A DNA stretch of 64,000 nt from Eledone cirrhosa. Lineage: Eukaryota. The notes below the pieces were generated by a model. That model made no database searches. It was not told the origin of the DNA and worked only from the letters and a program-made list of their open reading frames with translations. Positions 9,464 to 64,000 of the stretch are shown piece by piece (the stretch's first letter is position 1; each line of letters starts with the position of its first letter). Location: assembly GCA_964016885.1 (NCBI GenBank), contig OZ024752.1:43276001-43340000 (forward strand), read 5' to 3'. The position numbers were made by a program, and so were the translations under genes.

Positions 9464-9495
<32 letters not shown>

Positions 9496-9622: not shown

Positions 9623-9654
<32 letters not shown>

Positions 9655-9683
9655 ATATATATTATATATATTATATATATATA

Positions 9684-9770
<87 letters not shown>

Positions 9771-9796
9771 ATTATATATATATATTATATATATAT

Positions 9797-9827
<31 letters not shown>

Positions 9828-9899
9828 ATATATATATTATATATATATATATATTATATATATATATATTATATATATATTATATATATATATATTATA

Positions 9900-9930
<31 letters not shown>

Positions 9931-9932
9931 AT
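8964..9932. repeat. ~970-bp (TA)n array with frequent AA/TT phase shifts
   Basis: Direct. Confidence 0.98.
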
Positions 9933-9987
9933 ATCTTATCCGATATCTGCATTGCTTTATTGTACTACAATAAAACTCACCTCCTAC

Positions 9988-11364: not shown

Positions 11365-11964
11365 TACTAGAATTTACTTTAAAAGAATATTCAATTAAGA
11401 TATATACAAAATATATGTAGAGAAATTTTTCTAAGAAATTAACAGTTTTATTAATAAAGAAATCATTATTATTCTCAATTTCTAATTTAAGGTTGTAATT
11501 ATTGAAAAATTCTGATACTTTTCTTTTTCCTATTAAGTTCGCTATTGCTATGGTTGTCAACTATAAGTAACATATCGTCACGGCCATCTTTGCCATTTTA
11601 CTATGTAGTACATTAAGAATAAATATTCCAACGAGGTCTGTTACTTGAGCTGAGTCAGATGATCCCGTTGTGATATCGAAATTGTTCTGTCTGTCAGCCC
11701 TTGTCCAGATATGGTTATTAAATTCAATTAGGGTTTTGCATGCGGTTAAAAGGATATTTATTTCTTCACTAGATAAGTCCGTATATTTTGAAGCATAAAT
11801 AAGTGCCTTATTAAGAAAGTTAGGGGTAATTGAGGAGTAGTAATTAGCAATATCCATTTGTATAAATTTTTTCTTATGTTTTAATAACCAATCTATTACT
11901 TTATTTGTACCGTTCCATAGTTTAAGGTTTGATATATAACCTCGCAAAACAAATTCATTGCCGT

Positions 11965-12026
<62 letters not shown>

Positions 12027-12253
12027 AACAAAAGATGGTTAAAAGAGTTCCATGTATTTTATTATGCGCATTTCAAAAACAAATATTGCATGATGATATT
12101 TGTTTTTGAAATGCGCATAATAAAATACATGGAACTCTTTTAACCATCTTTTGTTCTTATATGTTATGTATACTCCAGTCCTACAAACTGTAGAGTGCTT
12201 CTTATCCGATATCTGCATTGCTTTATTGTACTACAATAAAACTCACCTCCTAC

Positions 12254-12331
<78 letters not shown>

Positions 12332-12900
12332 TCGCATAATTAAATATGTAAACACATAATTATATAGATACGCACACATAATTATATCATTTTAGTAGTT
12401 TTGCTTAAGTGCTGGTATAATCCTATCTAGTATATGTTTGCTAATTATGCCTAAATTAGACTTAGATGGTGCGATATGTCTGGCTGGTAGTTCAACTTCG
12501 AAATTTCTTTTGTGGTCCTTCATATTTATCTTCGGTTTCCTTGGTATGAAAGGTTCAGTCTTATTTTGAATACCTAATTTATAAATGATTTCCGAAGCTT
12601 CTTTATTTAGGGTTGATAGATCTTCATTAGAGGGTTTTTTATAGTTCTTCCTAAGTTCTTTCAATATTAAATTATTATAATCATCCTTTTCTATTCCGTA
12701 TAAATTATTAGTTTTGTCAGATGTTACAAGGATCTTCTTTGTTTTTTTCACGTTGTCTATTTTGTTTTTAAGGTCTTTGAGGTATTCCTGGTATATATAT
12801 TGGTTCCTTTTAAATTTAATGTTCTGTATTATGGAGATTAATTCATTTTAAAATTCGGCTAGTAGTTTATTGAAAGGTGATTTTTCCTGGATTTGAAAAT
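11365..12900 (-). mobile_element. Degenerate Penelope-like element RT region, interrupted by a ~450-bp insertion at a TATA site
   Basis: SDKTNNLY, PSKSNLG.ISKHILDRI, LWNGTNKVIDW, FIQMDIANYYSSI, FDITTGSSDSAQVTDLVG and a frameshifted GRDDMLL match PLE RT motifs. Confidence 0.88.
12020..12162. repeat. ~140-bp palindrome, same family as 19988-20328
   Basis: Axis lies inside the hammerhead stem II loop; the right arm continues to 12253. Confidence 0.93.
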
Positions 12901-14538: not shown

Positions 14539-14545
<7 letters not shown>

Positions 14546-14925
14546 GTTTGAATATGTGTAATAAGGCCAAAACAATGCAGGTATGGACATAGAAAAAAGA
14601 ATGCAATAGTAAAAGGATTCGTCTTTCACCTTGAATTTATTTAAATGTCCTTAATTTTCGAGATAATATCTCTTCTTCGGAGGGAAATAAAGGTCTCAAA
14701 CCAGCGTCTTAAATCTCTAGCTTGGCTAGAGATTTAAGACGCTGGTTTGAGACGCTGGTTTGAGACCTTTATTTCCCTCCGCGGAAGAGATATTATCTCG
14801 AAAATTAAGGACATTTAAATAAATTCAAGGTGAAAGACGAATCCTTTTACTATTGCATTCTTTTTTCTATGTCCATACCTGCCCTGCATTGTTTTGGCCT
14901 TATTACACATATTCAAACGTTTATA
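14539..14925. repeat. Palindrome, axis ~14723
   Basis: CTAGC-TTG-GCTAG centre; right arm has a 13-bp duplication, a 5-bp insertion and substitutions. Confidence 0.95.
14649..14684 (-). ncRNA. Hammerhead-like motif with CCGAAGA core in a palindrome arm
   Basis: CCU-CCGAAGA-A-GAGAU-AUU-AUCUC-GAAAAUUA-AGG; the mirror arm core is further mutated. Confidence 0.5.
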
Positions 14926-14963: not shown

Positions 14964-15121
<158 letters not shown>

Positions 15122-15225
15122 ATAATAAATTTGAAGACTAAAATCCAAAGATGGCTCGATAAGGATAAATATATATCAAATATATAAGAACCGTAGAGCA
15201 AATATTTATTAAAATAACAGATTAA

Positions 15226-15276: not shown

Positions 15277-15296
15277 AAAAAAGTTTCAGAAGATCC

Positions 15297-16456
15297 ATGC
15301 TTTTACTTATTGAAAATAATAACTCTGAACTAAATAGAAAAAGAAAACAAATTACACAATTTTTTAATTACTTTAATCTAAAAATAGAAATTGAGAATAA
15401 CCATAGAATAGTCAATTTCCTAGATGTAACATTAAATCTCAACACATGTCTTCACTATCCATTTCACAAGTTGAATGAAAACTTAAACTATGTCAGCTTT
15501 AACTCTAACCACCCCAGATCTGTTAAAAATACTATAGTAAACTCTGTTCAAAATCGTATCTCTAGAATCTCATCTAATAAAAAGATTTTCGACAAAAAAG
15601 CCCAGTATTACAATGAAGCGTTAGCTAGAGCAGGATATAGTGATAAAATTATGTACATAGATAATAATAGACAAACTAACCAAAATAACAACAATTTTAA
15701 TTACGGCAACAACTTTAACAACTATAATAGAAAGCATTACAATAATTCCAAAAGCCAAAAAAGAAATAGAACTAGGAACATAATATGGTTCCCCCCCCCC
15801 CTTTCTCACTAAACATTAAAACCCACATCGCTAAACTATTTTTTAATGCTCTTGATAATCGCTTCCCTAGAACACATAGGTATCACTCAATTTTCAATAG
15901 ACATACTATAAAATTAACCTACTCATCCACCAAAAATTTAGCACAAAATATTAATAGAATAAATAATAGGAATTTAAAACCTAGCCAAAATACCGATAAT
16001 AGCATAAATAATATCCAAGTTAACAAATGTAACTGTAGAGATAGATCTAAATGTCCGTTAAATAACAATTGCTTAGTTAAAAATATAATATACAACTGTA
16101 ATGTTAAAACGGACTTAAATTCTTTTAACTATGTTGGTTCCACCTCAACAGAATTTAAACTTCGCTATAATAACCACAAGAATTCTTTCACAGATCCAAG
16201 CAAAAAATCTTCAACATCACTATCAGGCCTACTCTGGCAACTTAGGCATGATAACGTTGGATATTCAACGGCTTGGAATATAGTTTCAAGAGGGATTCCT
16301 TTTAATTCATCCTCTGAGACATGTGACCTCTGCGCGGAGGAGATATTCTTTATACTAAAATCTAAAAATTCCCTTAATTTACGGACAAATTTATTCAGTT
16401 GCTGCAGACATAGATTGAACTCAACTTTTAAATATAAATATAAATTTAAAATGTAG
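15297..16456 (+). mobile_element. 5'-truncated Penelope-like element: RT thumb, CNCR..CP..C Zn motif and C-terminal GIY-YIG endonuclease; frameshift in a C11 run at ~15791
   Basis: VNFLDVT, YV..SNHP, RNIIWF.PPF, IFNR.T.KL.YS, NIIY..YVGST..FK.RYNNH, CDLC.EE, CCRH. Starts just after the YRDD position. Confidence 0.92.
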
Positions 16457-18328: not shown

Positions 18329-18864
<536 letters not shown>

Positions 18865-18940: not shown

Positions 18941-19872
18941 TCTATATATATAAAACTGTGGTTGTCTGTCTGTCTATCGATTTTTGGCACACATCTCTTA
19001 GAATCTCTCACGGAATTGCACCGAAATTGCTATACTTGTACATTGAGCCCTAGCGAAGACATCGGAAAAAAAATATTTCAAATTGACCCACCCTATGTGA
19101 CGAAATCGAATATAATGCATCGATTTTTGAGCGTAAGTTATCAGTTATTTCCCTTTGTTCTGTTTACATTGAGCGTCTTACGTAAAAAATTACGCTGGCT
19201 TTCTCAGCGTTTAAAATGACATTAACACAATACACGAACAGTTGTCGTCGAGCCAGCAAAATATTGACCTGCAAAATTCATCAGTTCGAACACTAAGCTT
19301 CCGTTTTGCTTCATTTCCATTTAAAAGCATTTTAAAACAATATTTTTACTTGAAAACAAGTCTATTTAAAGACTACGTAAAACAAGCAAATATTTCGTCG
19401 TTAGGCGTGCAGACAGACAGTCGTGCAGAGAGGTGATATACGCGTGCAGACAGATAGTCGTGCAGAGAGGTGATATAGGCGTGCAGACAGACAGTCGTGC
19501 AGAGAGGTGATATAGGCGTGCAGACAGACAGTCGTGTAGAGAGGTGATATAGGCGTGCAGACAGACATAACTGATAATTTGGTTACGCTAATGTTTTTCT
19601 CTGCGTTGCAGTGTTTACATTTTCGATCTTTGTTAATAAATAACCAGTGCAGTTTTTATCCCCAGCATCCTCTTTTGTTATAACATTCGGGTTATCGTTA
19701 TGTTTTCTTAACTTCATAAGGCATATTGTTGGTTGAGGGAATATTAATCAAAAACACCACATGCAAGTCTGCACAGTAGACACTACAGTTTTTAAGCCAA
19801 TAAAGAAACTTAACATTGTAACTTTAACACAGCTACTGAGCGACCCCGAGCAACGCCGGGCTTTACTGCTAG
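18941..19872 (+). mobile_element. Non-autonomous Helitron
   Basis: A|TCTATATATATAAAA 5' end; 3' GC hairpin (CCCGAGCAACGCCGGG) then CTAG|T; internal minisatellite. Confidence 0.85.
19403..19567. repeat. 37-bp minisatellite (~4.4 copies) inside a Helitron
   Basis: AGGCGTGCAGACAGACAGTCGTGCAGAGAGGTGATAT at 19403, 19440, 19477, 19514, 19551. Confidence 0.95.
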
Positions 19873-19987
19873 TTATATATATAAATATATTTATATATAA
19901 TGTAGGAAGTTAGTTTTATTGTAGTACAATAAAGCAATGCAGATATCGATTAAGTAGCACTCTACAGTTTGTAGGACTGGAGTATAA

Positions 19988-20328
19988 ATAATATATAAGA
20001 TCAAAAGATGGTTAAAAGAGTTCCATGTATTTTATTATGCGCATTTCAAAAACAAATATCATCATGCGATGACATTTGCGTTTTCGTCAGATAAAATAGG
20101 GAGACATGATATGAAGGTTAAAAAACACTTGTGAATAGTGCAGTTTTAAATCATACATATGTTGATTTAAAACTGCACTATTCACAAGTGTTTTTTAACC
20201 TTCATATCATGTCTCCCTATTTTATCTGACGAAAACGCAAATGTCATCGCATGATGATATTTGTTTTTGAAATGCGCATAATAAAATACATGGAACTCTT
20301 TTAACCATCTCTTGATCTTATATATTAT
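19988..20328. repeat. ~340-bp palindrome, axis ~20158
   Basis: AAATCA-T-ACATATGT-TGATTT centre. Confidence 0.97.
20218..20288 (+). ncRNA. Type I hammerhead ribozyme (mirror copy at 20028-20098, -)
   Basis: UAUUUUAU-CUGACGA-[~15-bp stem II]-GAAA-UGCGCA-UA-AUAAAAUA; 8-bp stem I, palindromic stem III. Confidence 0.87.
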
Positions 20329-20796
20329 ATATATATATATAGAGAGAGAGGGGGGGGGGGGTAAATTCCGCTCTGATAGCAGTGATTAGAGATTGAGCGT
20401 AAACAACTTACCACGGCTTGTCCCAGAGACGGGAAAGCTCAGATTCGGTTTTGAATCTTCGCTGCCGTTATACATTTATTGAGTGTCTTTTTGAATCTAT
20501 TCATTTCACATAATAAACATTGTTACAGGAAACGTACTGAAGTGCAAAGCATACAATACACCCACTGTGGTTATCAATTTAAACCACAAATGATATCTTG
20601 ACTGTCTCAACAGGTTTTTGTGAATCAAGGCTGCTATGTGAGTTGACTAAGATAAAGATTAGTGTTGCACAACAGCTGTGAATTAACTCATAGCATACTG
20701 TAACGATCTAGCTTGTCTAAAAATGAGTTTGTTAATTCAAATGTTTATAGTATCTTTATTAAGATCTTTGTGAAAATGTTCAATATTATATGCTAC

Positions 20797-23604: not shown

Positions 23605-24724
23605 GTATGTATATTCGGCGATCTCTCTACATCAGTTTTTTTTTGTTTTTTTTTTAGAAACCACAAAATCTATCATAGTTAATATTTACTTCGGCACTAC
23701 CATGCTATTAGTTGTCAGAAGTGAAAGTTACGTCAACCTTCTCAATCGTAAACATCGTTTATTTCCGTATTACCACAGCTAATAGCATGGTAGTGCCTTT
23801 ACTTCCTATTTTTCTCTATGTTGGCATGAGCTGGACGGACTGTTACCGTCCCAGGCGAAACAGATCTCATCTTCTTCAGACCTACATTCGTTATACCTTT
23901 TCTACAAGTTATACTGGGTACGTTTTATCGTGACACTACCTCTAGCACTTCCTGGTCTAGAGGTAAGGGGTGTCTTCTTCGTCCTGGGGTAGGTGTGATT
24001 AACAGTTGTGAGAACAACTTGTACAGGAAGGAAAGTTCAGGGCGAATGAGAAAAAGACTGGATGTAGTGATAAGAGGCTAGGGAGTGAGGGCTGTTGATG
24101 TTATGTATACAAGACTAAAGTCTCTCTTGAGCCCAGAGGCACATCAGGTCGGTGCGTATCCCGGTTTCCATGGCGTGAAGCAACTGAGAGTACAAGACAA
24201 CTCCCTGGACGGGACGCCAGTTTATACGAAGCTAAACTCATTTTCAGCTGAGTATATTGGAGGAATGACTGAAATGAAGTGTTTTGCTCAAGAACACAAC
24301 ACACAATCCAGCCCAGGAGTCAAACCTATGATATGATCATAAGTCCAACACTCTTACCACTAGGCTACTTGAGGGAGAACTCGTTATGTTCAATAAAGGC
24401 AAGAAATACAAAAGGTTGTTAAAGCCTGTCCTAAATAAAATAGATAACAGGATAGACCTACTGGAGTTTACCACTTGAAACAATTAAACTGTTTTATACA
24501 TTTAAACCGGCTGTATCCAGCCACAATTCTCTCACCTCTTTCTGCTCAAACCGGCCATAACTGACCACTCATACTGATGTTAAGGCATTGTTCTCAAAAT
24601 AAATAACATCATTTTGTATTGGGAACCAGGGGTGTTTTCGAGGGTTTTGGTATAAAAAGAGTTAATTTTCAGAAATTCGTTAAACTAGAATAAAAAAAAT
24701 ATTATTTTCTGTTTGTCTTTCCAG

Positions 24725-25975
24725 AAATAGATCTGAAAATGCCCATCATTGTAACCGTGAAGCTTTCCCTCTTTTTTTTAACTTATCTTATGTCATTCGG
24801 TCTTGTTGTTACTACTTGCCCTACTGTCTGTCATTGCAACAAGGGACTCACAACTGTCAATTGTAATAAGAAATCTCTAAAAACAGTCCCTGAAAACTTA
24901 CCAATGACTACAGAATATCTTTCATTGGAAAAAAACGAACTTACAGAAATTACTGTAAATTCTTTTAAAAATTTGATTCACTTGAAAACGCTTGTATTAT
25001 CTTCAAACAAAATTTCAATTATCCAAAAAAATAGTTTTATAAGACTATCCAAACTGTCTAGTCTTGCTCTGATAAACAATGATCTCTCTACTATTGAAAA
25101 TGATTCTTTTGCTGGGGCCAGTTCTTTAACTAAAATTGACTTCAACTCCAACCGTTTTGAAGACATCCCAAGTCTGTTTGGTTTAACCTCATTGAAATCT
25201 CTACTATTGAATACCAACAAAATCTCAAAGGTTTTCTTTCCACCTCAATACAGACAACTAAAAAACCTCTCACAAATAAATCTCTCCAACAATAAAATAA
25301 CTGAACTTACTGTGCATTCTCTGATCAACTTGAACGAGTCAACTATACGAAAGATCTCATTTTCCAGAAATCAAATCTCATCTATTGAACAAGATACGTT
25401 CCAAGTCCTACGAAACATTAATTCCATAAGCTTTGCAGAAAACCCTTTAACAGCAAAAGTCCTGAAAAAATGTCTGTGGCCAGTGAGAAACTATGACCTG
25501 ATATCTTTGGATCTTTCTTCGCTGGGAAAGATAAACATTCTGACAGATAATATTTTTGATATCTTTCAGAACACTTCCCTCCGAACATTAATCTTAACTC
25601 ATAACAACATTACACATGTCAACTACGATAGTTTCAAGGCACTTACTTCCCTTGAAGTTCTCAAGCTAGACTTTTGTTCCATTACCAACCTACATGAATC
25701 AGCATTCACTCATCTGAATCGCTTAACAAGGCTCTTTCTCAATGGCAACTATATATCAAAACTAACCCCAGTTTTTCCAGTAAAACTGCTCTATCTCTAT
25801 CTCAATGACAATACAATCCAGGTAGTCCCCAACAACATATTTGGCCAACTGACTCACTTGAGGGAATTGCACCTGCAGTACAATAAAATTGTCCAGTTTA
25901 AAGCCGATGCATTTGTAGGTTTGGAAAAACTGCACACTTTGAAGTTACAACACAATATTATTAACGTCATACCAG
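24725..25975 (+). CDS. Toll-like receptor, ectodomain exon (signal peptide, LRRNT, LRRs)
   Basis: ORF from ATG 24739: hydrophobic signal, CPTVCHC..VNC LRRNT cap, many LxxLxLxxNxI repeats. Polypyrimidine/CAG acceptor at 24724; donor CCAG|gtaagt at 25975 (phase 1). Confidence 0.93.
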
Positions 25976-26152
25976 GTAAGTCATCACATCACATCACTCT
26001 CAGCATCTTCATCACCATTATGTCCCTCATGCCTACACCACATGAGGGTCAGTTTGTTTACCTGAGTCAATGAAATGTAAAATGTACAGCTCTCGCCTAT
26101 ATAGGGTTAGGTGACCTATAAAGCTGCTTATCATGAGGTTTCTGGGTGGGGG

Positions 26153-26343
26153 TTAACCCTTTAGTGTTTAAACTGGCAAAAATTCTTTCACCTTTTTCTG
26201 TTCAAACCAGCTGTAACCAACTACTTATACTGATGTTAGGGTATTATTCCAAAAATCTCATAGATTCGATATTATTTAAGATAATGCCTTTACCATGAAA
26301 ATACAATAGTATCTATAGAGTAATGTGATTGCTAAAGGGTTAA
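26153..26343 (+). mobile_element. piggyBac-like MITE in the TLR intron
   Basis: TTAACCCTTTAG...CTAAAGGGTTAA; internal similarity to 42567-42773. Confidence 0.72.
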
Positions 26344-26872
26344 TGAGAGGAGCCCTATTATGTTGTTACAGCTTTCAACTATATAGGCTTTGGTGACTTT
26401 CTACAAAGTTGCTTCTCATAAGGTTTCTTGGGTGTTATAATGAGAGGGGGCCCCAGTCCTATCATACATACTCATATGTACATTATTGATACAGCTCACA
26501 CCTATGTAGTTTTAGCTGGAGTTCATACTGCTCTATACAGTAGACTGTATACATCATCAATTAACGTCCATCTTCCACGCAAGCATGGGTTAGATGGGTC
26601 GGGCGACTGTGTCTCGCTCATATAGGGGTCTTTCTGGCTGGATGCCCTTCCTAACACCAGCCATATAGACTGGGTGCTTTTTGCCATGTCTTTTACACTA
26701 CATATATGTAGTGAGTATGTTGTGTGTATATATATATATAGTCAGTACACTGTATTTTAGATATAAACAATTTCCATTGATCACTTCTGCTAACTGTTAA
26801 TATGTCCATCTGTTTTTGTCTGTCATTTCTTGAACTATATATATATATGTTTGTGTGTATTGTTTCTTGCAG

Positions 26873-28137
26873 GTCGTCTGTTTTCTACTTTGGTTGGTCT
26901 CGTACATCTGGAACTTGGTAGCAATTCTATTACCAATATACCTGAAGAAATATTCACCAAATTAAAATCGCTGAATTCTCTAGATTTGTCCAATAACCAT
27001 ATTTCAATGATGCCTCAAAGTTTTTCCAAGATGATTCAATTACAGCAACTGTATTTGGAGAATAATAAACTTGGAAATGGCTTTCTACTGAGTGGCCTAA
27101 AAAATTTGATAGCTATTGATTTATCTAATAATGAAATTGAAGGGCATTTGTCTGAGAAACTCTTCCAGAACAATGGCCATCTTAAATATATTTCTCTTAG
27201 TGGAAATAGAATTAGAGGATGGCAAAATAACACATTTAAGGCCACAAATTTAACACTGAAAAAACTAGATGTCAGTAAGAACTACATAATTACTTTTGAC
27301 ATTGATTCCCTAAGATATATCAATAACAAGAAAGTATTCAATATTACGATGAATCCATTTGTATGTAACTGTGATCTCCGCTGGTTCCGAGACTGGTTAA
27401 ATACAACAACAGTTGATGTTGTTGGTAAAAGTTACTTGACATGCAACAGCCCAGAAAAGTGGCAGGGTAAGAAATTGCTTGACTTTGATAGGTCCAAGAT
27501 AGACTGTACCGATTATACACCTTACTATATCTCTGGGGGCGTGGTTTGTGGGTTCCTTATAACAACAATAATAATTTCTATTGCATACAACCGACGATGG
27601 TACATCAGACTTAAAGTGTATAAAGCTTATAAGAAAATAAACAAAGTAGTCAGAGATAACCAGTACGAAGAGATACCTGGAGAGGACCAATTTTCTGATG
27701 CATACGTCAGCTACTGTGAAAATGATAGAGAGTGGGTTGAAACCTATTTGATGCAAAGGTTTGACAATGGAGAAAATGCAGAGGGCCACAACTACAATGG
27801 AAAGTATAAACTATGTTTTCGTGAGAGAGATTTTGAGTATGGCAAATATGTTGCTGGAATGATAGACGAGAGTTTAAAGACAAGCAAGAAAATGCTAGTG
27901 ATTCTCACACCAAATTATATCAAAAACAGTCAGTGTAAATTTGAATTAAACATAGGTATTTCTTATTGTGGTATCAATAACATCAAGGTGATTGTAGTTG
28001 GAGACATTAAATGTGAACAAATCCCTAATATACTTAGTAGTATCATCGAGGAAAGGAAAGATATTAAATGGGATAAGGATGAACATGCTACAACCTTATT
28101 AACTAAGAAACTGGATGAATTTCTGACAGACAATTAA
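26873..28137 (+). CDS. Toll-like receptor, last coding exon (LRRs, LRRCT, TM, TIR); spliced protein ~833-841 aa
   Basis: Acceptor tttcttgcag|GT matches phase 1. NPFVCNCDLRWF..TCNSP..C LRRCT, TM YYISGGVVCGFLITTIIISIAY, TIR motifs DAYVSY, LCFRERDFEYG, SKKMLVILTPNY, CKFEL. Single cysteine-cluster type. AATAAA at ~28302. Confidence 0.95.
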
Positions 28138-29673: not shown

Positions 29674-32600
29674 TTAATGAGGCCTTGGCCAGCGTGGGGG
29701 ACCACTTGGTCTCATACCACGTGGCGGCCCTCCCCTCCCTTCAAACCTTGGGGGGCGACGAGGGCCCATACCACGCATATTACCTTGATTCCAACCACCA
29801 GGACCGTTGAAGTCAGACCCATGATCGCGTGGCGCCATACCACGTGGACCCCCTCGACGTGGTCCTCCATCAAAGCGAGGCCGTGGTCCACCGGGACCAT
29901 CAAAATTCGGCCGTGGACCCCTCGACTGATTCATAGCACCTCTATGCCCCATAAACCGTCCTGGAGGGCCATGGTCCCTGTTCATATCACTAAGACCACC
30001 AAAGCCACCAAACTGTCCAGGGCCCACGTCCATACAGCGATCCCCTTCAGGAAAGAAATCAGGTCGCCCCATTCCGGAATGGTCCATTCGACCTCCTGGT
30101 CCATTAAAACGACCCATCTGATCCATGCGGTTATCACCAGAGTCTACATCCCTATCAGGGCGACCCCGATCAGAACGCCGACTATCTCTGTCAGGTTTAT
30201 CTCCACTACTTTTATCTTCATTTGAAGCTGTACGTTCAGTTTTTTCGGTTCTGTCGTTCTTGTCTGAAACATTGGTACGTTCCGTCTTGTCAGGAGTTGT
30301 TGACTTCTCTGTCTTCTCACTTGCTGCGGCCCTTTCACTCTTCTCTCCGCTGCCACGATCTGATTTGTTTCCACTTTTTTCAGATTTATCGGCACTCCCG
30401 CTACGCTCCCCTTTGTCTGCAGTGCTGCTGGTACTGCGGTCACTTTTGTCCGTACTACCACTACTACCACCACTACCACCACCACCACCACTACTACCAC
30501 CACCACCACCACCACCACCACCAGCACTACTACTACGTTCAGTTTTCTCATTGCTTCTATCAGATTTCTCACTGTTACCACCAGCACCACCACCGCTGCC
30601 GCTACGGTCAGGGCGATCTCCCCCACGGTCAGACCTGCTGCTATCTCGGTCTGACCGGTCACTGCGACTACCGTCTCTCTCAGACCTATCAGAACCACCA
30701 CGATCACCTCGACTACTTTCTCGATCCGATCGATTCTCTCTGTCCGAACGGTCACTGCTGCGATCGAGTCTGTCACCTCGGTCAGGTCTGTCTCCCCTCT
30801 CAGACCTGTCACCACGATCTGACCGATCCCGATCTGAACGCCCATCTCTGTCAGATCTGCTGTCTCTGTCGGAACGACCATCTCTGCTGCGGTCCGACCT
30901 TCCATAGTTGCCTCGATCTGACCTTCCATAGTTGCCACGATCTGACCTTCCGTAACCCCCACGGTCAGACCTACCATACCCTCCATGGTCACCCCTACCC
31001 CCCATGTGGTCGCCTCTACCCCCCATGTGGTCACCTCTACCCCCCATATGGTCAGGTCTGTTACTCATATGATCAGGACGCCCCCTCATCTGGTCGGATC
31101 TTCCCCCCATCTGGTCAGGTCGCCCACCCATATGGTCAGGGCGTCCACCTAGCTGATCTAGTTGTCCTCCCATGTGGTCAGGCCTTCTACTCATATGATC
31201 TGACCTTTGGTGACCTGTATTTGAACTGTTATCTCCATAGTTACCAGCTAAGCCCATCCCTTCTGGAATCGCAGTTGGAATAGTAGGGGAAGGATCAGCA
31301 TCACTCCAGCGAGTCCTCCGCTGGTTCTCTCCACGACCCCCAACTTTTTTAACCTCATCCTTTGGTTTCGACGATGAATAATCTGAATATACACCTCCAC
31401 CGCTCCCATAGTTACCCTGACTATCTGATTTATCACCACCCCACCTCTGCCTACCACCAGACTGCCACTGATTCTCATTGCCAGTACGTGCCTGGTTATA
31501 ACCAGAGCCTGGCAACATGGAGTTGTTACTCGACTGACCAACATCAGACCTGTAGCCATGCTGTTCAAGACGGTTACCACCATCCATACCGCGGTTCCCT
31601 GGTTGATCATAGTTTCCATACTGACCTTGTTGATATCCACCGTAACACTGCTGACCACCACTACCACCACCACCACCACCACCAACATTACCCCGCTGGT
31701 TAATACCACCACCACCACCACCACCACTACTACTACTGCCGTACTGATTACCTTGATTGTTGCCACCATAAGATCCTTGGTTGTCAGAATATCTACCACC
31801 ACTACCACCACCACCACCACCACCACTACCACCATAGAAGTTCTGGTTACCGCCAGTGAACTGATTATTAGCACCACCACCACTACCACTACTACCACCA
31901 CCACTGTTATTGCCAGAACTACCATATTGGTTTTGGTTTCTTCCATAATTAGTTGATTGGTTGCTGCTGCTGTACTGGCTCTGCTGCGACCCGCCATAGT
32001 AATTAGACTGATTAGCATACTGTTGGCTCGACTGGTTCGATGTGGGGCTCTCCGAATAGGACCGCTGTTGCTCCCCACCACTACCGTACATGCTCACCTG
32101 GCTATACTGACTGGGCTGGTTAGAACTGTACTGACTCTGGCTGCCAGCCGGCGGTGGCTGTTGGTAACCACTATACTGGCTAGTATTGGCACTGTAAGAA
32201 GTTGCCTGAGCAGACCCGGATCGTTCCGGCTGGCTGGAGCTGTAAGAACTTTGCTGTTCCGCCTGACCGTATGTGGAATCTGACGAACTGCTGTATTGCT
32301 GCTGCTGTTGCTGTTGTTGTTGCTGCTGCTGCTGCTGGCGCTGGTTGTAATCATAGGAATAGCTACTACTTTGATAGGCCGACTGCTGTTGCTGCTGCTG
32401 CTGCTGCTGCTGTTGTTGTTGTTGTTCATTGTAGGGCGGAGATGTGTACTGCGAGGTTTGGCCGCCATAACTGGACTGCACACCCCATGTCTTCGCGTCA
32501 GTTCCAGGGAACTGGGGGGGCAGATTCAGCTGAGATTGGCTGTAGGAAGAATACTGATCACTGTAACTACTAGGTTCTTGTTTCATGGGCGGTGGCGGCG

Positions 32601-33300
32601 GCGGTGGGGGAGGCGCAGAGGTGTTAGCGGGGTTAGCGGCACCATACCAGTTGCCAAGGTTACTACTGTTCACTGCGCCACCAACACCACTCCCTCCACT
32701 ACCACTGACACCTGCAGAGCCAGCCACCCCACCACTACGAGCAGCAGAATCTGCGTCTGTGCTCGAGTAGCTACCCTGGTAGGCTAGTGTTCCGTAGCTG
32801 GGGTTCTGAACATTGTAGGAAGCCGGGGTACCCTGATCTCGACTGCCTCCCCAACCAGTAGAACTAGTCTGGTACCCGCCATAACCCCCACTTACTGACT
32901 GAGAACCATAGCTGCCGGTAGCACTGTTTGAGGTGCTGCTTGTGTATTGGCCACCATAACTGTCATAAGCAGAACGAGACTCTGATTTAACATGGATGTC
33001 CTGCCACTGGGGTGAGTTCTCTTCACCTTCACCACCATATTCCTGCTTAATGAAATCAAGGGCACTGCTGGGGTCAGGCTTGATACGTTTCTCAGGAGGT
33101 TCTGTAACATCAGTGGCAGGGCCCCATCTAGACTGGCGACCTTCAAAACGATCTTTGTTGCCGGGGGGAGGAGGGGGTGGAAGCATTGGGGCCCTCTGGC
33201 CAGGAGCAAGATCCATTTGGGGTTTCTCCACCTTGATTATCTGGTGCGGTGGAGGTGGTGGACCTTGTGACATTCGTGGAGAAAAGGCTTTCTGAGGGTT
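29674..33300 (-). CDS. HNRNPUL1: hnRNP U/U-like terminal exon, 1208-aa low-complexity tail (Pro-rich, SYGQ/polyQ, G/N-rich, RGG, DHMGGRx repeats, RSDR mixed charge)
   Basis: Uninterrupted ORF; acceptor ttctaattgcag|AAC in phase 0; minus-strand AATAAA at 29227-29232. Confidence 0.88.
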   Translation of the reverse strand, partial: NPQKAFSPRMSQGPPPPPHQIIKVEKPQMDLAPGQRAPMLPPPPPPGNKDRFEGRQSRWGPATDVTEPPEKRIKPDPSSALDFIKQEYGGEGEENSPQWQDIHVKSESRSAYDSYGGQYTSSTSNSATGSYGSQSVSGGYGGYQTSSTGWGGSRDQGTPASYNVQNPSYGTLAYQGSYSSTDADSAARSGGVAGSAGVSGSGGSGVGGAVNSSNLGNWYGAANPANTSAPPPPPPPPPMKQEPSSYSDQYSSYSQSQLNLPPQFPGTDAKTWGVQSSYGGQTSQYTSPPYNEQQQQQQQQQQQQQQSAYQSSSYSYDYNQRQQQQQQQQQQQQQQYSSSSDSTYGQAEQQSSYSSSQPERSGSAQATSYSANTSQYSGYQQPPPAGSQSQYSSNQPSQYSQVSMYGSGGEQQRSYSESPTSNQSSQQYANQSNYYGGSQQSQYSSSNQSTNYGRNQNQYGSSGNNSGGGSSGSGGGANNQFTGGNQNFYGGSGGGGGGGSGGRYSDNQGSYGGNNQGNQYGSSSSGGGGGGGINQRGNVGGGGGGGSGGQQCYGGYQQGQYGNYDQPGNRGMDGGNRLEQHGYRSDVGQSSNNSMLPGSGYNQARTGNENQWQSGGRQRWGGDKSDSQGNYGSGGGVYSDYSSSKPKDEVKKVGGRGENQRRTRWSDADPSPTIPTAIPEGMGLAGNYGDNSSNTGHQRSDHMSRRPDHMGGQLDQLGGRPDHMGGRPDQMGGRSDQMRGRPDHMSNRPDHMGGRGDHMGGRGDHMGGRGDHGGYGRSDRGGYGRSDRGNYGRSDRGNYGRSDRSRDGRSDRDSRSDRDGRSDRDRSDRGDRSERGDRPDRGDRLDRSSDRSDRENRSDRESSRGDRGGSDRSERDGSRSDRSDRDSSRSDRGGDRPDRSGSGGGAGGNSEKSDRSNEKTERSSSAGGGGGGGGGSSGGGGGSGGSSGSTDKSDRSTSSTADKGERSGSADKSEKSGNKSDRGSGEKSERAAASEKTEKSTTPDKTERTNVSDKNDRTEKTERTASNEDKSSGDKPDRDSRRSDRGRPDRDVDSGDNRMDQMGRFNGPGGRMDHSGMGRPDFFPEGDRCMDVGPGQFGGFGGLSDMNRDHGPPGRFMGHRGAMNQSRGPRPNFDGPGGPRPRFDGGPRRGGPRGMAPRDHGSDFNGPGGWNQGNMRGMGPRRPPRFEGRGGPPRGMRPSGPPRWPRPH

Positions 33301-33819
33301 CTGCAATTAGAACAAAAATTACAAACATAACAACTTAGCCCAAACATTTAACAGTAGAAACAACAAATAAATCCAATAAATCCAGGATCAAAACAGATTA
33401 ACAATTGATTTCATTTTTAATGGATTTGCCAAATGGCAACAGCAGTGACCAACCAATGGGAGAGGGCTCAAGGTCACTGACTAAGCCTACTTCTACCTAC
33501 AGCAGCAGTGGCCGACCTTTCTGACCTCATGGACCACTAAGTTCATAATTATAAATCCCACCGACCACTAATATGAATTTTATTTAACAAGATAAATACA
33601 TTAAAATTTTTCTGCATATCACTGGCTGGTGACCGCTAACCTACAGGGTCTCTCTGATTAGTGGGAGGAGAGGCGGATAGCATTCAGCTGGGCCATTGAT
33701 GAAGACTACCACCCCACAGGATCTCATTCAACTGGGCTTCCCCATACTTCAGAGAGTTGTCACTTTTGGCAACAAAAAGTTGGTCACATGATAATTGTGT
33801 TTGAACTTTTTCTCCACCC

Positions 33820-39290: not shown

Positions 39291-39441
39291 TGTGGTTAGC
39301 GTTAGGAAGCTACATCCAGCCAAAATCGGTTCTGCATGAGCAAGACCTAGTCATCTGACCTCAACTTGTTTCAAATAGGACAACCCGTCTAACCCTTGCT
39401 AGCATGGAAAATGGACATTAAACAATATATATATATATAGT

Positions 39442-39719
39442 AAGAATATTTTCGAAACTATAAATATAAGCTATCACCGTATTTTGACTAAAGAAATTAA
39501 AGAAATTATTTAGCCTGATAGTGGGGTTAAGAACCCTCGGAGAAATGGGAAAAGATGAGTATTGACGTACATGTACGTCAATACTCATCTTTTCCCATTT
39601 CTCCGAGGGTTCTTAACTCCACTATCAGGCTAAATAATTTCTTTAATTTCTTTAGTCAAAATACCGCGATAGCTTATATTTATAGTTTCAAACTCGCTCG
39701 CTGTTTCGAAAATATTCTT
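39442..39719. repeat. ~280-bp palindrome, axis 39571/39572
   Basis: ATTGACGTACA|TGTACGTCAAT centre; arms differ by substitutions and an 18-bp insertion. Confidence 0.95.
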
Positions 39720-39974
39720 TTTATATATGTATATATATTGCTTTTTGCTTTGGTCCCACTCGGTCACAAATGATCATTGTTTTGCACCTAGAAACTCATT
39801 TCTACAGCTGAGTAAACTGGGGCAACATGAAATAAAGTGTCTTGCTCAAGGAAACAACACATCACCCGGTCCGAGAATCAAACTCAGAAACTTTCAATTG
39901 CAAGCCCAATGCTCTAACCACTAAGTCACGCGCCTTCACATACACACTCACATATATATATATATATATATATC

Positions 39975-40412
39975 ATGATCATCACCGTTTTACGTCCGTT
40001 CTTCCACACTAGCATGGGTTAGACGGGTTGTCCTGTTGTGGGTAGTGTCCGGTCAGCTGACCTTGTCTTGCTCATACGGGAACTGATTCTGGCTTGATTT
40101 CTACAGCTGGATGCCCTTCCTAACACCAACCTCATTTGCAGTGAGTGCTGGGTGCTTTTTTTTCCCTGGCATCTACACGACCACTTTACAGTGTGGGCTG
40201 GGTGCCTTTTTGCCGTGGCACCTCCACAACCACTTTGCAGTGGAATGAAAGGGACCCCAGTCCTATCATCTCATTTCTACAACTGAGTAAACTGGAGCAA
40301 TGTGAAATAAAGTGTCTTGCTCAAGGAAACAACACATCACCCGGTCCGAGAATTGAACTCAAAACCTTTCGATTGCAAGCCCAATACTCTAACCACTAAG
40401 CCATGCACCTTC
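39975..40412 (-). mobile_element. Full-length Ceph-type tRNA-SINE (partial copy adjacent at 39795-39937)
   Basis: Same A/B boxes, core and tail. Partial copies also at 4741-4886, 5245-5360, 11090-11310, 26550-26690, 28995-29140, 34430-34580, 39290-39425. Confidence 0.88.
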
Positions 40413-51982: not shown

Positions 51983-54033
51983 CTGTGATAGGAAAAACCA
52001 GTTCTTGCCTTTCAAAATTAAATCAATTTAAAAAAAAAAAAAAAAGCAAAAAAAAATTTTTTTTTTCAATAAATAAGATAATTGTTCTTTGTCCAGTGTT
52101 AAATAAAATCCTTGCCCAGAATGTTAAAATAATTAAAACTTGACTGTTGTTAGTCCTTGTACATCAACAACAACATGACAAATTATAGAGCCAAATGATA
52201 GAACATCCCCCACACACTCCTTAATGTTGTAAGTCTTTATACAGCAACAACACATGATAGAATATCTCAGCCCACTCCTTAATATTGTACGGCTGCTCAC
52301 ATCAACAATAACAGTTATAATACAATGATGACTATGCCCACCCTAACTCTCAATAGCAACAAGACAAATTATAGAATATCCGAGTCTTAAAAATAGTTTC
52401 CTTGGTCAGTTTTCAGTGAAGTTGGAATCAGGTAAAATCATGTCAAAACTATAAATAAATAATGTTTTCTGAATTAGGCACAAGGCCAACAATTTTAGGG
52501 GAAAGGGAAAGTCAATTGAATCGACTCCAGTGCATTACTGGTACCTTATTTTATTGACCCCGTAAGGATGAAAGGTGGTAAAGCTAACCTCGACGGGATT
52601 TGAACTCAGAACATAAAAGGCCATAACTCTATGCCGTTAAGCATGATGTCCGAAGCTCTACCGATACTGCCAATATCAAATTTAAATATGGAACATAAAA
52701 AAAAATCTTTTAAGTTTTTCATCATTGAGGTAATTATTAAAAATAAGTGAGAAATATTTTAAATACCGTCTTTCTTTTGGCCTACACAACCATTTGAATT
52801 GCTTAATATATATATATATATATATGCTCAGAGAGGTACCAGATCCTACTTAGGTAAAGGACAACTGACGTGGAGTGCTTAAGCCTTCATTGATTGCCCT
52901 GATAAAATACAACACTGACAATCAACTGACATTGATATTAAGACAACTATCTATGTGTGTGCGGGCACTCACACACACTGAGTAATCTAACTAAACTTCA
53001 CACTGTCACTGTTGAGGGCCTGTATAAATCTTCAGCTGAATAACTTAAATTTCTAACCAACACACAAGATACATACACTTATATCCCAATCAATAGATTA
53101 AGTACTCAAGACATAAAACTGTACAGAGACAATGCTTCCAATTCTTGTAAATCTCCCCATATTTGTTTGATTGTTTGTTAACTATTAACTCAGTACAGTG
53201 AGAAGGAAGCTGGTTTCCTAGATTGGGTCTAATTTGAACTTTAACAGCGACTTCTTTATAAGTATCCAATCTAAATATGTCTTCTTTTTGTCTCTTTATA
53301 GAGCAGAAATCTCTAAGCCATCCTCTCTGTACAGTTGTATATTGACAAACAATTCATCAGCAATGTAAATCATCAATGTGGATATAGATAAAACAATTAG
53401 GAAATAACTAAAACGTTTACAGTTAAAACATTCAATAAATTCAGAAAAATACTCTGTAAAAATGTGAAAGACTGAAGAAAGTTGTTGGAAAATTCGATAG
53501 AAGAATTAACTGTAGCATCAAATATTATATTTGTATTTCATTGATAAAGAAAAGATAACTTTCCTTATAACATAATATATCTATATATAGAAGGATAGTC
53601 TTTGAAGTAGTTTTATAAAGAGTTAGTATTTATTGTAGCATGCTAGACAAACACACAATACTTTATTCAATCATGTGTATTTTTTTTTTTTTCACTTAAG
53701 ATTTATCTATATATATATATAAAAAAAAAAAAAAAAAAGATTTAAAAAAAAAACACCATAATAATGATAACAGTAATAATTATATATTATAAAATATTTT
53801 CAGAAATAAAATATCAAAATACATAATTTTAAATTTCTAAATTGTTGGTATTTTAATATTGATTGAAATGGAGGTACATATATTATTTATCTTCACATAT
53901 ACCTTGGAATAGAAGTACATATATCATATCTTCAAATATACTGTGAAACGAGAATGTATATGTCATATATCTTCATACATACGGTGGAACAGAAGTGCAA
54001 ATATAAATACATATATATATATATATATATACA

Positions 54034-54135
<102 letters not shown>

Positions 54136-54308
54136 TATATATATATATATATATATATTATATCTATATATATATATTATATCTATATACATATATATAT
54201 TACATCTATATACATATATATATTATATCTATATACATATATATATATTATATCTATATACATATATATATTATATCTATATACATATATATATACATAT
54301 ATATATAC

Positions 54309-54383
<75 letters not shown>

Positions 54384-54391
54384 CACATATA

Positions 54392-54463
<72 letters not shown>

Positions 54464-54597
54464 GATATATATATATATATGTATATATATATGTATGTAT
54501 ATATAAATATTATATATATTATATATATATATATATGTATATATATATGTATGTATATATAAATATTATATATATATATATGTATGTATATATATAT

Positions 54598-54631
<34 letters not shown>

Positions 54632-54649
54632 TATAAATATTATATATAT

Positions 54650-54685
<36 letters not shown>

Positions 54686-54699
54686 AATATTATATATAT

Positions 54700-54735
<36 letters not shown>

Positions 54736-55051
54736 TGTATATATATGTACTTATATATATATATATATATAAATACATATATATATATATACTGTGAAAA
54801 AGAAGGTTCACTCTAAACTAATTGTACCCATCTCAAATAATAAAATTATAATAATAATAAAAAAAAGAATATATTATATTAAAAGCATGCTAATCTATTT
54901 TAAAATAAATTTAGGCAGTCATTGACAAATGAAATTCAATTAGGTTTAATTGTATAATTTAACGACTTCATTGCTGAAAGCTGAAACTGGAAACGAGAAA
55001 AACAAAGTGATTTGTCATGAATGAACGGAACACATTTATAGTAAATAGTTG

Positions 55052-55490
55052 GCACACAGGTGTGTGGGGGACATCAGGTACACTGAGTTGTTGACACACA
55101 GGTGTGTGGGGGACATCAGGTACACTGAGTTGTTGACACACAGGTGTGTGTGAAGACATCAGGTACACTGAGTTGTTGACACACAGGTGTGTGGGGGACA
55201 TCAGGTACACTGAGTTGTTGACACACAGGTGTGTGGGGGGACATCAGGTACACTGAGTTGTTGACACACAGGTGTGTGTGAAGACATCAGGTATAGTCAG
55301 TGGCTGATACACACACACAGCTGTGTGAAGACATCAGATATAGTGTTGATACACACACACACACACGTGTGTGGGGGACATCAGATACGAGTGACTGACA
55401 CACACCACACAGATGTGTAAAGATATCAGGTACAGTGAGTGGTTGACACACCACACACATGTGTAGAGACATCAGATATAGTGTTGACAA
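55052..55490. repeat. 42-43-bp minisatellite (~6 good plus ~4 decayed copies)
   Basis: ACACACAGGTGTGTGGGGGACATCAGGTACACTGAGTTGTTG at 55094, 55136, 55179, 55221, 55264. Confidence 0.95.
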
Positions 55491-57409: not shown

Positions 57410-58510
57410 TGGTTATCAAAGTTGACAGAGGGTTAGGGGTTTGGGTCAAAGAAGCAATCAACAGCAGAAATGTCAAGCAAGTCACCTGTGTAGTCAATCA
57501 GGTAATACATGACGGTGTCCTCCCCATTGACTGGCATAACATACAACCATTGTTACAAGTGAAAAGGTGATGCTCTAGAGAGGAGTAGCTACAGAAGCAT
57601 AAAACCAGTGGATCAAGTTATGAAAATATCAGAAAGAGTTTTGGCACAACTAATTAGGGAAAGAATCAAATTATATATATGAAATCCAGTTTGGTTTTGG
57701 ACAAGAAAAGAGCATTACAAGTGCCCTCTTCTTAACGAGACAACTACAAGTTGTTTTTAGCTAAGTGTAAGCCACTATATCTAGCTTTTGTTAACCTGGA
57801 GAAGGACTTGGACACAGTTCCATCATCTGGTATCTTGTGGTCATTAAGGAAATTGAGAGGTAGATGAGTGGCTTGTAAGAGCAGTGTAAGCCATGAACAT
57901 AGGTGAGGTCAGCAATGTGAGAGTAGGTAATTCAATGTGCAAAGAGGTGTCTATCAGGGTTCAGTCCTCAGCCCATTTTTGTTTAGTTTATTATAGTTTA
58001 AGATTGGCTGCCCATCGAGACTCCTGTATACTGATAACCTGGTTCTTATTGTTGAATCTGTGGAAGAAATTCCTACTGTGGAAACAAAATCAAAAACATT
58101 CAGAGTAAACTTAGCAAAGACTGAAGTTTTAATAAGTAGGAAAGAAGACTCTGGTCTCCTCAGAAAAGTGGCCAAGCTCAATATGTTACAAAAAAAGTAG
58201 GTAGGAATTCTATGCGATGTAATCATTGTAAATATTCGGCACACAAAGTGTAGTGGGATAATTGTCAGACTAACAAAAAAGGAAGATTTTGTTTGTGGGA
58301 GATGTACAGGGGGTAGTTAGAAGTTAAGAACTCCAATGAAATAAATATTTCCAATATAGGGAAGGCTCCATAGAATTGGTTGATAGTTTCTGTTAACAAG
58401 GTGACCTAATTAGCAGTGGAGGAGGGTGCTCTGAAAGTATAGTAGCTAGAATAAGAACAGGATAGAAAAGGGCCAGAGAATTACTACCTTTGTTGACAAA
58501 AGATTTCTCT
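57410..58510 (+). mobile_element. Old, decayed RTE LINE RT fragment related to the 1150-3808 element
   Basis: KGDALER..YR.IK..DQVMK..ERV.AQLIR, PLYLAFV.LEK, DEWLV.AV, Zn-finger remnant, D.IS.GGGCSES...RIRTG; many stops. Confidence 0.85.
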
Positions 58511-59923: not shown

Positions 59924-60598
59924 ATCTGAAAATCTTCCATCATAATTGTATATAAGAACCTTTCTTTATTAAGTTATGTTTCAAACACTAACTTAATAAT
60001 GAGATTAGTTATATTACTAAATCCCTTCAAATTATTTGAAAACCATAGACAGCATCTTTCATTAGAAATATGGCAACAAAAGGGTTAATCTATAAGTTAC
60101 GATTACTGGAATAGAGTATCAAGTCTAGTCTGTCGGGAGGTTTGGTTATGTCTTCAACGCCTGTGATCTCTGACTGTCATTTTTAATAAACAGTCCTCAT
60201 ATAAATTGCACTACAATCTAGGTACCAACTTAATTCACTCCTTAACATTTGGTACCTCACACATTGCTCTCATACAACGAAGGTACATCACACATCATTC
60301 TCATTTAATGTCCATTCGCTCTGCTAGTAAGAGTTGGACTCCACAGTCCTATTACAAATGTTACCACACTCCACACCTTAATATTTGGTAGTAAACAAAC
60401 ATCATACAATCCAAGTGCCTCTCTATACAAATGATAGCCCATCTCCTTCATGCTAAGTTTATTATAAGTTAAAATATACAACTCCAGTTAGTCTGGTTTA
60501 AATACAAAATAAATACCTACAGTAAAACAAGATTTGGTTAAAGGGAGTCAGAATTAGCTAATACACACCCACAAAAAAACTGGCTATGTTAATCCTTT

Positions 60599-60710
60599 AA
60601 ATACTAACCTAATTGAAACCCCACAATTAAAGTGTTCAAATTTAAATACTAACCTACCTGAAACCCCACAATTAAACTGTTCAAATTTAAATACTAACCT
60701 ACCTGAAACC
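60599..60710. repeat. 45-bp tandem repeat (~2.5 copies)
   Basis: ATACTAACCT at 60601, 60646, 60691. Confidence 0.85.
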
Positions 60711-62293: not shown

Positions 62294-62391
62294 GCACACA
62301 CACATGCACAAGACAAAATTAGAATTGTTGACAATCACAGAATTGAATCCAAAAACAAACAAAAAAAAACTTAAGAACCATGGCTATAAAT

Positions 62392-62401
62392 ATGTTGAGG
62401 T

Positions 62402-62439
<38 letters not shown>

Positions 62440-62485
62440 GTTGAGGTGGATATATATATATATATATATATACATATGTTGAGGT

Positions 62486-62521
<36 letters not shown>

Positions 62522-62630
62522 TATCGAGCCCTCTTTGGATTTTAGTCTTCAAATTTATTATTATTACTATATATATATATATACATACATATGTTGAGGT
62601 GGCTATATATATATATATATGTTGAGGTGG

Positions 62631-62668
<38 letters not shown>

Positions 62669-63555
62669 AGGTGGCTATATATATATATATGTTGAGGTGG
62701 CTATATATATATATATATATGTTGAGGTGGCTATATATATATATATGTTGAGGTGGCTATATATATATATATGTTGAGGTGGCTATATATATATATATGT
62801 TGAGGTGGCTATATATATATATATATATGTTGAGGTGGCTATATATACATATGTTGAGGTGGCTATATATATATATATGTTGAGGTGGCTATATATATAC
62901 ATATGTTGAGATGGATATATATATATATATTCATATGTTGAGGTGGATATATATATATAAGTTGAGGTGGATATATATATATATATATATATATGTTGAG
63001 GTGGCTATATATATATATGTTGAGGTGGATATATATACATATGTTGAGGTGGATATATATATATATGTTGAGGTGGCTATATATATATGTTGAGGTGGCT
63101 ATATATATATGTTGAGGTGGATATATATATATGTTGAGGTGGATATATATATATGTTGAGGTGGATATATATATATATGTTGAGGTGGATATATATATAT
63201 GTTGAGGTGGATATATATATATATGTTGAGGTGGCTATATATATATATATGTTGAGGTGGATATATATATATATGTTGAGGTGGCTATATATACATGTTG
63301 AGGTGGATATATATATATATATGTTGAGGTGGCTATATATATATATATGTTGAGATGGATATATATATATATATATTCATATGTTGAGGTGGATATATAT
63401 ATATATGTTGAGGTGGATATATATATATATGTTGAGATGGATATATATATATATATATATATATGTTGAGATGGATATATATATATATATATATGTTGAG
63501 ATGGATATATATATATATATATGTTGAGATGGATATATATATGGTTGAGATGTCT
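62392..63555. repeat. Compound satellite: fixed GTTGAG(G/A)TGG(C/A) core separated by variable-length (TA)n
   Basis: Roughly 50 cores read directly; spacer length varies from unit to unit. Confidence 0.95.
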
Positions 63556-63609
<54 letters not shown>

Positions 63610-63715
63610 AGACATCTCAACCATATATATAGCCAACTCAACATATATATTGTTACACTTTTCAACATATTATGTAGAACCATTTCAGTATATATATATA
63701 TAGGAGTGAGTAGGA

Positions 63716-63809
63716 CCCCGACGGCAGAGCTCAAACCGTTTCGACGGCTATTTCTGGACTAAATTAAAATTTTTAGCCTGGTGAATAAATAGCAGAACTT
63801 TTCAAGGGG
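63716..63809 (-). ncRNA. Type I hammerhead ribozyme, U3:A8 core variant
   Basis: CCCC-UUGAAAA-G..GCUAUUU/AAAUAGC..C-GAA-ACGGU-UUGAGCUCU-GCCGU-C-GGGG. Confidence 0.72.
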
Positions 63810-64000
63810 GTACTTCCTTATATGGGAAGATTGTAGTTGTCAAGAGGCTTGGTTAACACAAATAAGTCTATCAAGCATTTGGTGGGAGGTAGGGGTGGCT
63901 GAACTTGCCTGTAGAACAATAGGGGAGTGAGTGGAGTGGTCAAGCAGCGTTGAAAGTGATATGTATACAGCAGATTCTAAGGCTAGTGAATGAAGTGGAG

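Follow-up and report, generated by a model that had tools for sequence, protein, structure and literature searches.

A TA-spaced minisatellite with PLE passengers beside a fold-back in Eledone cirrhosa, most likely grown out of neighbouring DNA

In the model of Haber and Louis 1998 (as cited in PMC6947457), minisatellites originate from short flanking repeats, and AT minisatellites are described as having grown from AT microsatellites (PMC8456018). Short fold-back inverted duplications and insertions are reported at DNA breaks (PMC11724301), and dinucleotide slippage is described above 4-5 units (PMC3812793), all as given in the accessible parts of these papers. The accessible text of a further source describes the Hydra clade of PLEs, which is marked by the motifs DKT and CxCX5C and the lack of CCHH; nearly all Hydra families insert into (TA)n (PMC8557442, section 11 and supplement table).

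Here, we analysed a stretch of 64,000 nucleotides of contig OZ024752.1 (called the window throughout), in which an array of a short core and (TA)n spacers had been attributed to a possible telomerase-like reiterative synthesis by a PLE reverse transcriptase. The array is a real and fairly ordinary tandem repeat, namely a known type of minisatellite that is accompanied by PLE passengers and has most likely grown out of neighbouring DNA through copying slips, and no function is implied for it. Compared to the VNTRs treated in PMC6947457, as far as the available text goes, it shares tandem units of 20-35 bp, clustered variants, an in-phase repeat at the border and a probable local seed, but half of each unit consists of a length-variable (TA)n run and the array lies in the arm of a short inverted duplication. 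It is likewise similar to the AT-rich minisatellites FRA16B and FRA10B, which are described as expansions of an AT microsatellite (PMC8456018), although it is much shorter and contains a G-rich core. An inverted duplication of the snap-back type and joining via microhomology are shared with templated fold-back insertions at breaks (PMC11724301, available text), to which the array adds about 39 further units. The resemblance to Hydra-clade PLEs (PMC8557442) concerns the ORF motifs, the pieces located in (TA)n, the inverted truncated copies and the hammerheads of the window, whereas the array itself is not PLE sequence, as no alignment between the two exceeded 12 nt. The A-B-A' layout with realignment known from telomerase and DRT10 (10.1101/2025.10.16.682844) could also yield a core plus spacer, but these systems use one RNA template with a boundary element according to the available text, while the array variants are inherited from neighbours and the array is internal, with its A-B-A' layout in the flanking DNA. 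Non-LTR retrozymes are tandem repeats linked to PLEs (10.64898/2026.07.22.740005), but each of their units has a hammerhead in the accessible description, whereas none was found in the array units by the type-I descriptor. We therefore rejected a retrozyme reading; a telomere-healing reading was rejected because the array is internal.

Unit structure and inheritance of variants

The array extends over 62394-63554 on the plus strand and comprises 40 units with the core GTTGAG[G/A]TGG[C/A], followed by a (TA)n spacer. The exact 10-mer occurs in 32 of the 40 units, which is far above chance, as 0.06 copies are expected from dinucleotide shuffles. Sixteen units carry the 11-mer haplotype GTTGAGGTGGA, another 16 carry GTTGAGGTGGC and 6 carry GTTGAGATGGA, while ATTGAGGTGGC and GTTGAGATGTC are represented by one unit each. 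The initial annotation had counted about 50 copies of a fixed 10-bp core, which has to be corrected to 40 units with three main haplotypes and two singletons, whereas its description of (TA)n spacers with variable lengths was borne out. The units are 21-46 bp and typically 22-34 bp long, with the exception of unit 3, which contains an insert and extends to 115 bp, and 37 of the 39 measured unit lengths are even. Tens of head-to-tail units of more than about 10 bp, as expected for a minisatellite, are thus present (40, mostly of 22-34 bp). The window is AT-rich, with 6.7% of its bases within TA runs, and an 8-bp direct repeat flanks the array at both ends (near 62374 and 63677).

The variants are clustered along the array. 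With unit 40 omitted from the haplotype tests for lack of a spacer, haplotype adjacency amounted to 23 of 38 (p=0.0016), and the corresponding values were 34 of 39 for the variant at position 7 (p=0.0009) and 26 of 38 for the variant at position 11 (p=0.014). Units with an A at position 7 accumulate at 36-39, beside unit 40, which is also an A carrier. In core positions 1-9 of all 40 units, 8 substitutions were counted, 7 of which are one and the same G-to-A exchange (p ~2e-8 under independent errors). Spacer lengths were tested with exclusion of unit 3 (insert) and unit 40 (no spacer), and we observed a lag-1 autocorrelation over units 4-38 (Spearman rho 0.39, p=0.006); the mean length difference between adjacent units gave p=0.008 over 38 units, but was not significant over units 4-38 (p=0.13). 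Units 15 and 33 both show the A variant together with a rare spacer interruption (Fisher p=0.02). The best pair of blocks consists of units 12-16 with 30-34 (p=0.048 and 0.033, by a scoring designed after seeing the data). Neighbouring units therefore have variants in common, as is typical of VNTRs (adjacency p=0.0009-0.014; block p=0.03-0.05).

The clustered haplotypes, the autocorrelated spacers and the shared features of units 15 and 33 argue for copying from neighbouring DNA and against independent copying of one RNA template. At the same time, spacer lengths did not differ significantly between haplotypes (p=0.15), and identical whole units recur at another place in the array in runs of no more than 2, which together with the clustering of variants suggests that the cores are inherited from neighbours and the spacers partly re-randomised. 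Block duplication had been named beforehand as an argument against reiterative synthesis, and the analysis went against that proposal, as both the variants of the core and the lengths of the spacers are clustered and one block can be seen to be partially duplicated. The independent core errors expected from a single template in a telomerase- or DRT10-type process were not found, although later turnover could mask an original pattern.

Fold-back, borders and growth from a DNA template

The array ends in a fold-back and is bordered by partial or decayed units, and one foreign piece is located within it. These features are as follows:

62381-62393, plus strand: partial unit at the left border, in phase, TGGC followed by a TA-like run
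62518-62567, minus strand: dispersed pLTR-like piece within unit 3's TA spacer, the only copy in the array
63515-63562, plus strand: left arm of the fold-back, units 39-40 plus the start of a CA run
63563-63602, no strand assigned: loop of the fold-back, (CA)n followed by a self-complementary (TA)14
63603-63650, minus strand: right arm of the fold-back, one whole unit between two TA runs
63651-63693, minus strand: two further decayed units at 22-24 bp spacing, profile ranks 161 and 18 of 125,597

The fold-back arms are 48 bp long and 95.8% complementary, differing at 2 of 48 bases (DNA fold z=-12), and they match nothing else in the window. A fold-back had been reported at this end of the array at 63541-63562 and 63603-63624; it is indeed present, but it is longer than this and its right arm includes a whole unit. 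The (TA)14 in the loop is likely the snap-back point. The unit in the right arm (63632-63642) is near-perfect, with T at core position 7 and C at position 11, and took rank 1 with 28 bits in a unit-profile scan of the 125,597 positions outside the array, where the next best score was 9.2. It lies 80 bp from the array among decayed inverted units and is probably the seed of the array. None of the 40 array units has the T at position 7, so the seed model needs a later mutation in the arm or a change in the founder unit. Three further candidate units are found on the minus strand at 21-24 bp spacing (ranks 121, 161 and 18, which are inflated by the TA context), and the decayed units at 63651-63693 probably represent an older degenerate repeat. 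On the left side, TGGC preceded none of the 78 TA-like starts elsewhere (independent-base probability 0.0017), and the partial unit is probably either a microhomology junction or a flanking short repeat. An in-phase short repeat at one border and a local candidate seed, as described for VNTRs, are thus provided by the left partial unit and the right-arm unit; the C at position 11 in both borders suggests that C is the ancestral state.

The inserted 50-bp piece is 97.8% identical over 45 bp to the reverse complement of 15118-15162 and 94.7% identical over 38 bp to 4926-4963 on the other strand. The piece and its copies were already recognised in the initial annotation and are confirmed, but its label as pLTR-like is based on position and dispersal only; it is probably an ultra-truncated PLE insertion, and the hammerhead descriptor gave no match in it. 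Because it is present once and its spacer retains the ending of units 1-2, it appears to have been inserted after the array had formed.

We consider it likely that the array arose by a snap-back inverted duplication at a TA run, followed by DNA-templated amplification with slips of the TA register. If the TA run at 63576-63603 was nicked or broken, the 3' end could have snapped back on the self-complementary TA sequence and copied the adjacent flank, producing the inverted arm; the direction of this copying is our proposal. The copied flank contains a core between two TA runs, and a slip or unequal exchange would then add a core together with a spacer of new, even-shifted length, because a strand ending in TA can re-anneal to the neighbouring TA run in any two-base register and each slip therefore results in a new spacer length. 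The end may have been rejoined to the left flank via the microhomology TGGC-TATA. Later turnover would then have copied variants from neighbouring units, as indicated by the adjacency statistics, and this could have erased an earlier pattern of different mechanistic origin. Independent PLE-type insertions into TA targets would account for the 50-bp piece and for the hammerhead element next to the array. The idea of realignment in the TA run is kept in this model, with the template moved from RNA to DNA: the geometry of a constant core with variable spacers proved sound, but the copying of a terminus RNA by a PLE reverse transcriptase was not supported. Read in this way, the locus is of limited significance: it represents a clear case of a minisatellite born from a TA microsatellite, in which seed, inversion and junction are still readable, in a genome whose PLEs target the same TA runs.

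PLE-type sequences and competing explanations

The window contains two remnants of PLE ORFs, a single copy of the core in one of them and a hammerhead-like motif next to the array:

11429-12862, minus strand: second broken Hydra-type PLE ORF remnant, aligned to a 714-aa relative
15285-16414, plus strand: broken Hydra-type PLE ORF remnant with RT thumb and GIY-YIG-type endonuclease
16140-16149, plus strand: one exact match to the core, the single one beyond the array, in codons of the endonuclease motif on the Hydra-type ORF's sense strand
63703-63815, minus strand: type-I hammerhead-like motif, descriptor match with 3' end at (TA)7

Both ORF remnants aligned to the 714-aa relative in tblastn searches, which also gave the domain order, and their translations show the Hydra-clade marks, i.e., DKT, CxCX5C, no CCHH and a C-terminal endonuclease, an assignment made from the motifs. 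Two sequences split the remnant at 11429-12862, namely a TA run and a fold-back piece of the hammerhead family. A Pfam search with nine ORFs, comprising five PLE fragments and the ORF at 20859, revealed no family below E=0.02 for these six, with neither RT nor GIY-YIG among them. No PLE coding sequence was detected near the array by six-frame translation of both flanks and tblastn with the full-length relative, and none of 41 pattern matches for PLE loci in bacterial and archaeal genomes was confirmed. Because Hydra PLEs target (TA)n, one expects to see PLE scraps in or next to a TA-rich array even when nothing links them causally.

The motif at 63703-63815 matches the type-I descriptor with a stem I of 4 bp, a stem III of 4 bp and a U3-A8 core replacing C3-G8, and core boxes, stems and cleavage triplet are present; the U3-A8 variant has been reported in PLE hammerheads (PMC4209133, available text). 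The descriptor gave 3 matches in the window, including this one, vs. 0.2 per shuffle (30 shuffles). The hammerhead proposed here in the initial annotation is thus upheld by the descriptor, but it fails a stricter cut requiring a stem I of at least 5 bp, and no Rfam hammerhead family was found at gathering score in the whole window or at E<=10 in 63600-64000. The base of stem II is mispaired by inspection, the free RNA fold is not significant (z=-1.35), and the window contains no second copy of the element. The motif would belong to a separate PLE-type insertion with a putative hammerhead. Further hammerhead core boxes at 8863, 8622, 14061, 14425, 17779 and 28850 fail the full type-I descriptor.

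The array unit had also been likened to the ends of hammerhead elements at TA tracts. At 9935-9987, 12085-12253 and 19902-20070, the ends of the hammerhead family are indeed adjacent to TA runs, but the core resemblance is at chance level: the element ends at 9988 and 12254 top the 108 TA flanks for similarity to the core, yet an equally good score is reached by 47% of shuffled cores, or by 66% if their terminal AC is kept fixed, when the null is built on the 75 non-simple distinct flanks of the 108 (an earlier null including simple-repeat flanks gave 60-86%). In the Craig 2021 consensus files, where line breaks can hide matches, a text search for the core 10-mer retrieved one copy, located mid-sequence, and three related 10-mers were not retrieved. 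The core was not seen by eye in the 3' ends of five invertebrate Hydra consensus sequences and one more. The expectation that the core equals a PLE terminus was therefore disappointed, as it matches no terminus in the window beyond chance and a single consensus copy lies mid-sequence.

Against this background, we regard it as quite unlikely that a PLE RT recopied a short RNA in telomerase style, realigning in an AU run, with later DNA turnover blurring the pattern. In that case, the template would have been either a Hydra RNA segment or a transcript that reads through from the adjacent hammerhead element and covers TA-core-TA. PLE RTs are related to telomerase, the right flank shows the A-B-A' layout which repeat addition requires (10.1101/2025.10.16.682844, available text), and two element ends rank first among the TA flanks as described above. 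Moreover, the exact 10-mer at 16140-16149 lies on the sense strand of the Hydra ORF, reaches 12 nt if the T and A on its two sides are included, and counting the core itself, 4 of 840 core permutations match the 5.7 kb of PLE-like DNA and 3 of 840 the ORF sense strand. This match favours a PLE source of the core and keeps the probability of a PLE template at its low level. However, the PLE subset was chosen afterwards, 135 of 840 permutations (16%) have an exact match anywhere in the window, a number that falls to 13 of 840 for 12 nt, and matches of 10-12 nt elsewhere are also frequent for other TA-flanked segments; the copy in the ORF is probably a coincidence. The ORF site has no flanking TA runs, and no TA run lies upstream of the element 3' ends, so both are devoid of a realignment site and of the A-B-A' layout that repeat addition needs; TA-core-TA is present only in the flanking DNA. 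The terminus similarity is equalled by 47-66% of shuffled cores, the recurrent clustered variants are not derivable from one template, and the single insert points to an insertion after array formation. The in vitro PLE study makes no mention of repeat addition in its available text (PMC11167929), and the literature searched, with most subscription papers outside its scope, revealed no PLE-made core-plus-TA arrays. If it were true, a PLE RT capable of repeat addition would directly inform on the relation between telomerase-like synthesis and retrotransposition. Such arrays would then be the trace that a retrotransposon leaves in the genome through telomerase-like repeat addition, and the TA expansions of this genome would partly stem from them. 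In a related version to which we give little credence, a Hydra-type PLE RT would nick a TA run, stall and re-prime in TA register on short RNA or DNA, producing core-plus-(TA)n arrays. It is similarly doubtful that this process also covers the phase-flipped tracts at 8962-9934 and the patchworks of captured pieces at 4680-5140, and equally improbable that the exact core in the Hydra ORF marks its template.

It is also rather unlikely that a PLE only initiated the process on a DNA template, in which case a Hydra- or Naiad-type endonuclease would have nicked the TA run and either the PLE RT or a host polymerase would have built the fold-back and the first units. Eight of the 11 local fold-backs in the window, including that of the array, have their outer end at a TA run (binomial p ~9e-10), and hammerhead boxes or PLE sequence are present in several of them; PLEs are known for inverted copies with 5' truncation, a PLE-type piece lies inside the array, and a PLE protein cleaves AT-rich DNA in vitro and extends both strands (PMC11167929, accessible part). 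By inspection, however, those fold-backs that contain PLE sequence are made of element sequence and have their turn at a truncation point outside TA, as described for PLEs, whereas that of the array turns on a TA loop with arms matching nothing else in the window, and it is located beyond the 3' end of the hammerhead element rather than at a 5' end. A sequencing or assembly artefact, in which a low-complexity region would have given rise to chimeric fold-backs and wrongly called TA lengths, is suggested by the many near-perfect palindromes and very long TA runs of the window, but we consider it very unlikely because the arms differ at 2 of 48 bases, the length differences are almost all even and the variants form inherited haplotypes. 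The fold-back stops are moreover reproducible, as two copies from one family of hammerhead elements (12025 and 20325) have their inverted arm ending at a matching TA-like site inside the element, where it is joined to a TA run, which suggests cDNA self-priming and joining via TA microhomology.

Other TA arrays and repeats in the window

Three other TA arrays of the window (8962-9934, 6932-7599 and 54001-54791) show a like architecture with trivial cores. The tract at 8962-9934 consists of 973 bp with 60 TA runs, which are split by single AA or TT phase flips, and its neighbours are a fold-back with a hammerhead box on one side and the 3' end of an element on the other. The flip types cluster (47 of 59, p=0.0008) and the run lengths show no autocorrelation, as expected if duplication copies the interruption and resets the TA register. 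This tract is a better candidate for reiterative synthesis than the core array. The arrays at 6932-7599 and 54001-54791 contain short interruptions repeated in blocks, and the latter is bordered by a direct repeat of the neighbouring decayed 41-bp repeat. The region 53864-54805 accordingly combines this decayed, TA-containing 41-bp repeat with a 790-bp interrupted TA array with higher-order blocks.

Near-perfect fold-back palindromes are present at 5041-5123, 7646-8274, 8522-8963, 12020-12162, 14539-14925, 18329-18759, 19983-20333 and 39425-39736, and further ones at 84-433 and 338-598; the arms of the fold-back palindromes in the window are 40-222 bp long and mostly 96-100% complementary. Short foreign pieces have been captured in TA runs, e.g., at 4739-4885, and the region 4680-5140 consists of pieces joined by TA runs, namely a SINE head of 25 bp, a SINE body of 97 bp, a 17-bp piece, an 81-bp pLTR-like piece and a 30-bp fold-back.

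The window further contains a Toll-like receptor gene with LRR and TIR domains (Pfam) in two long frames (24694-28137, plus strand) and an 890-aa LINE-type frame with endonuclease, RT (Pfam) and a PHD-like finger (1172-3844, minus strand), of which a decayed relative is located at 57551-58488. A low-complexity frame of 1210 aa at 29674-33306 (minus strand) is rich in G, S, Q, R and D and contains coding repeats of 21 bp and 24 bp. Additional minisatellites occur at 5638-6096, 19402-19567, 55048-55483 and 60596-60710 with units of 143, 37, 42 and 45 bp, respectively, the 143-bp unit deriving from a dispersed repeat, and at 40346-40403 on the minus strand, an abundant SINE-like repeat has a tRNA-like head that scored 30.6 bits with Rfam.
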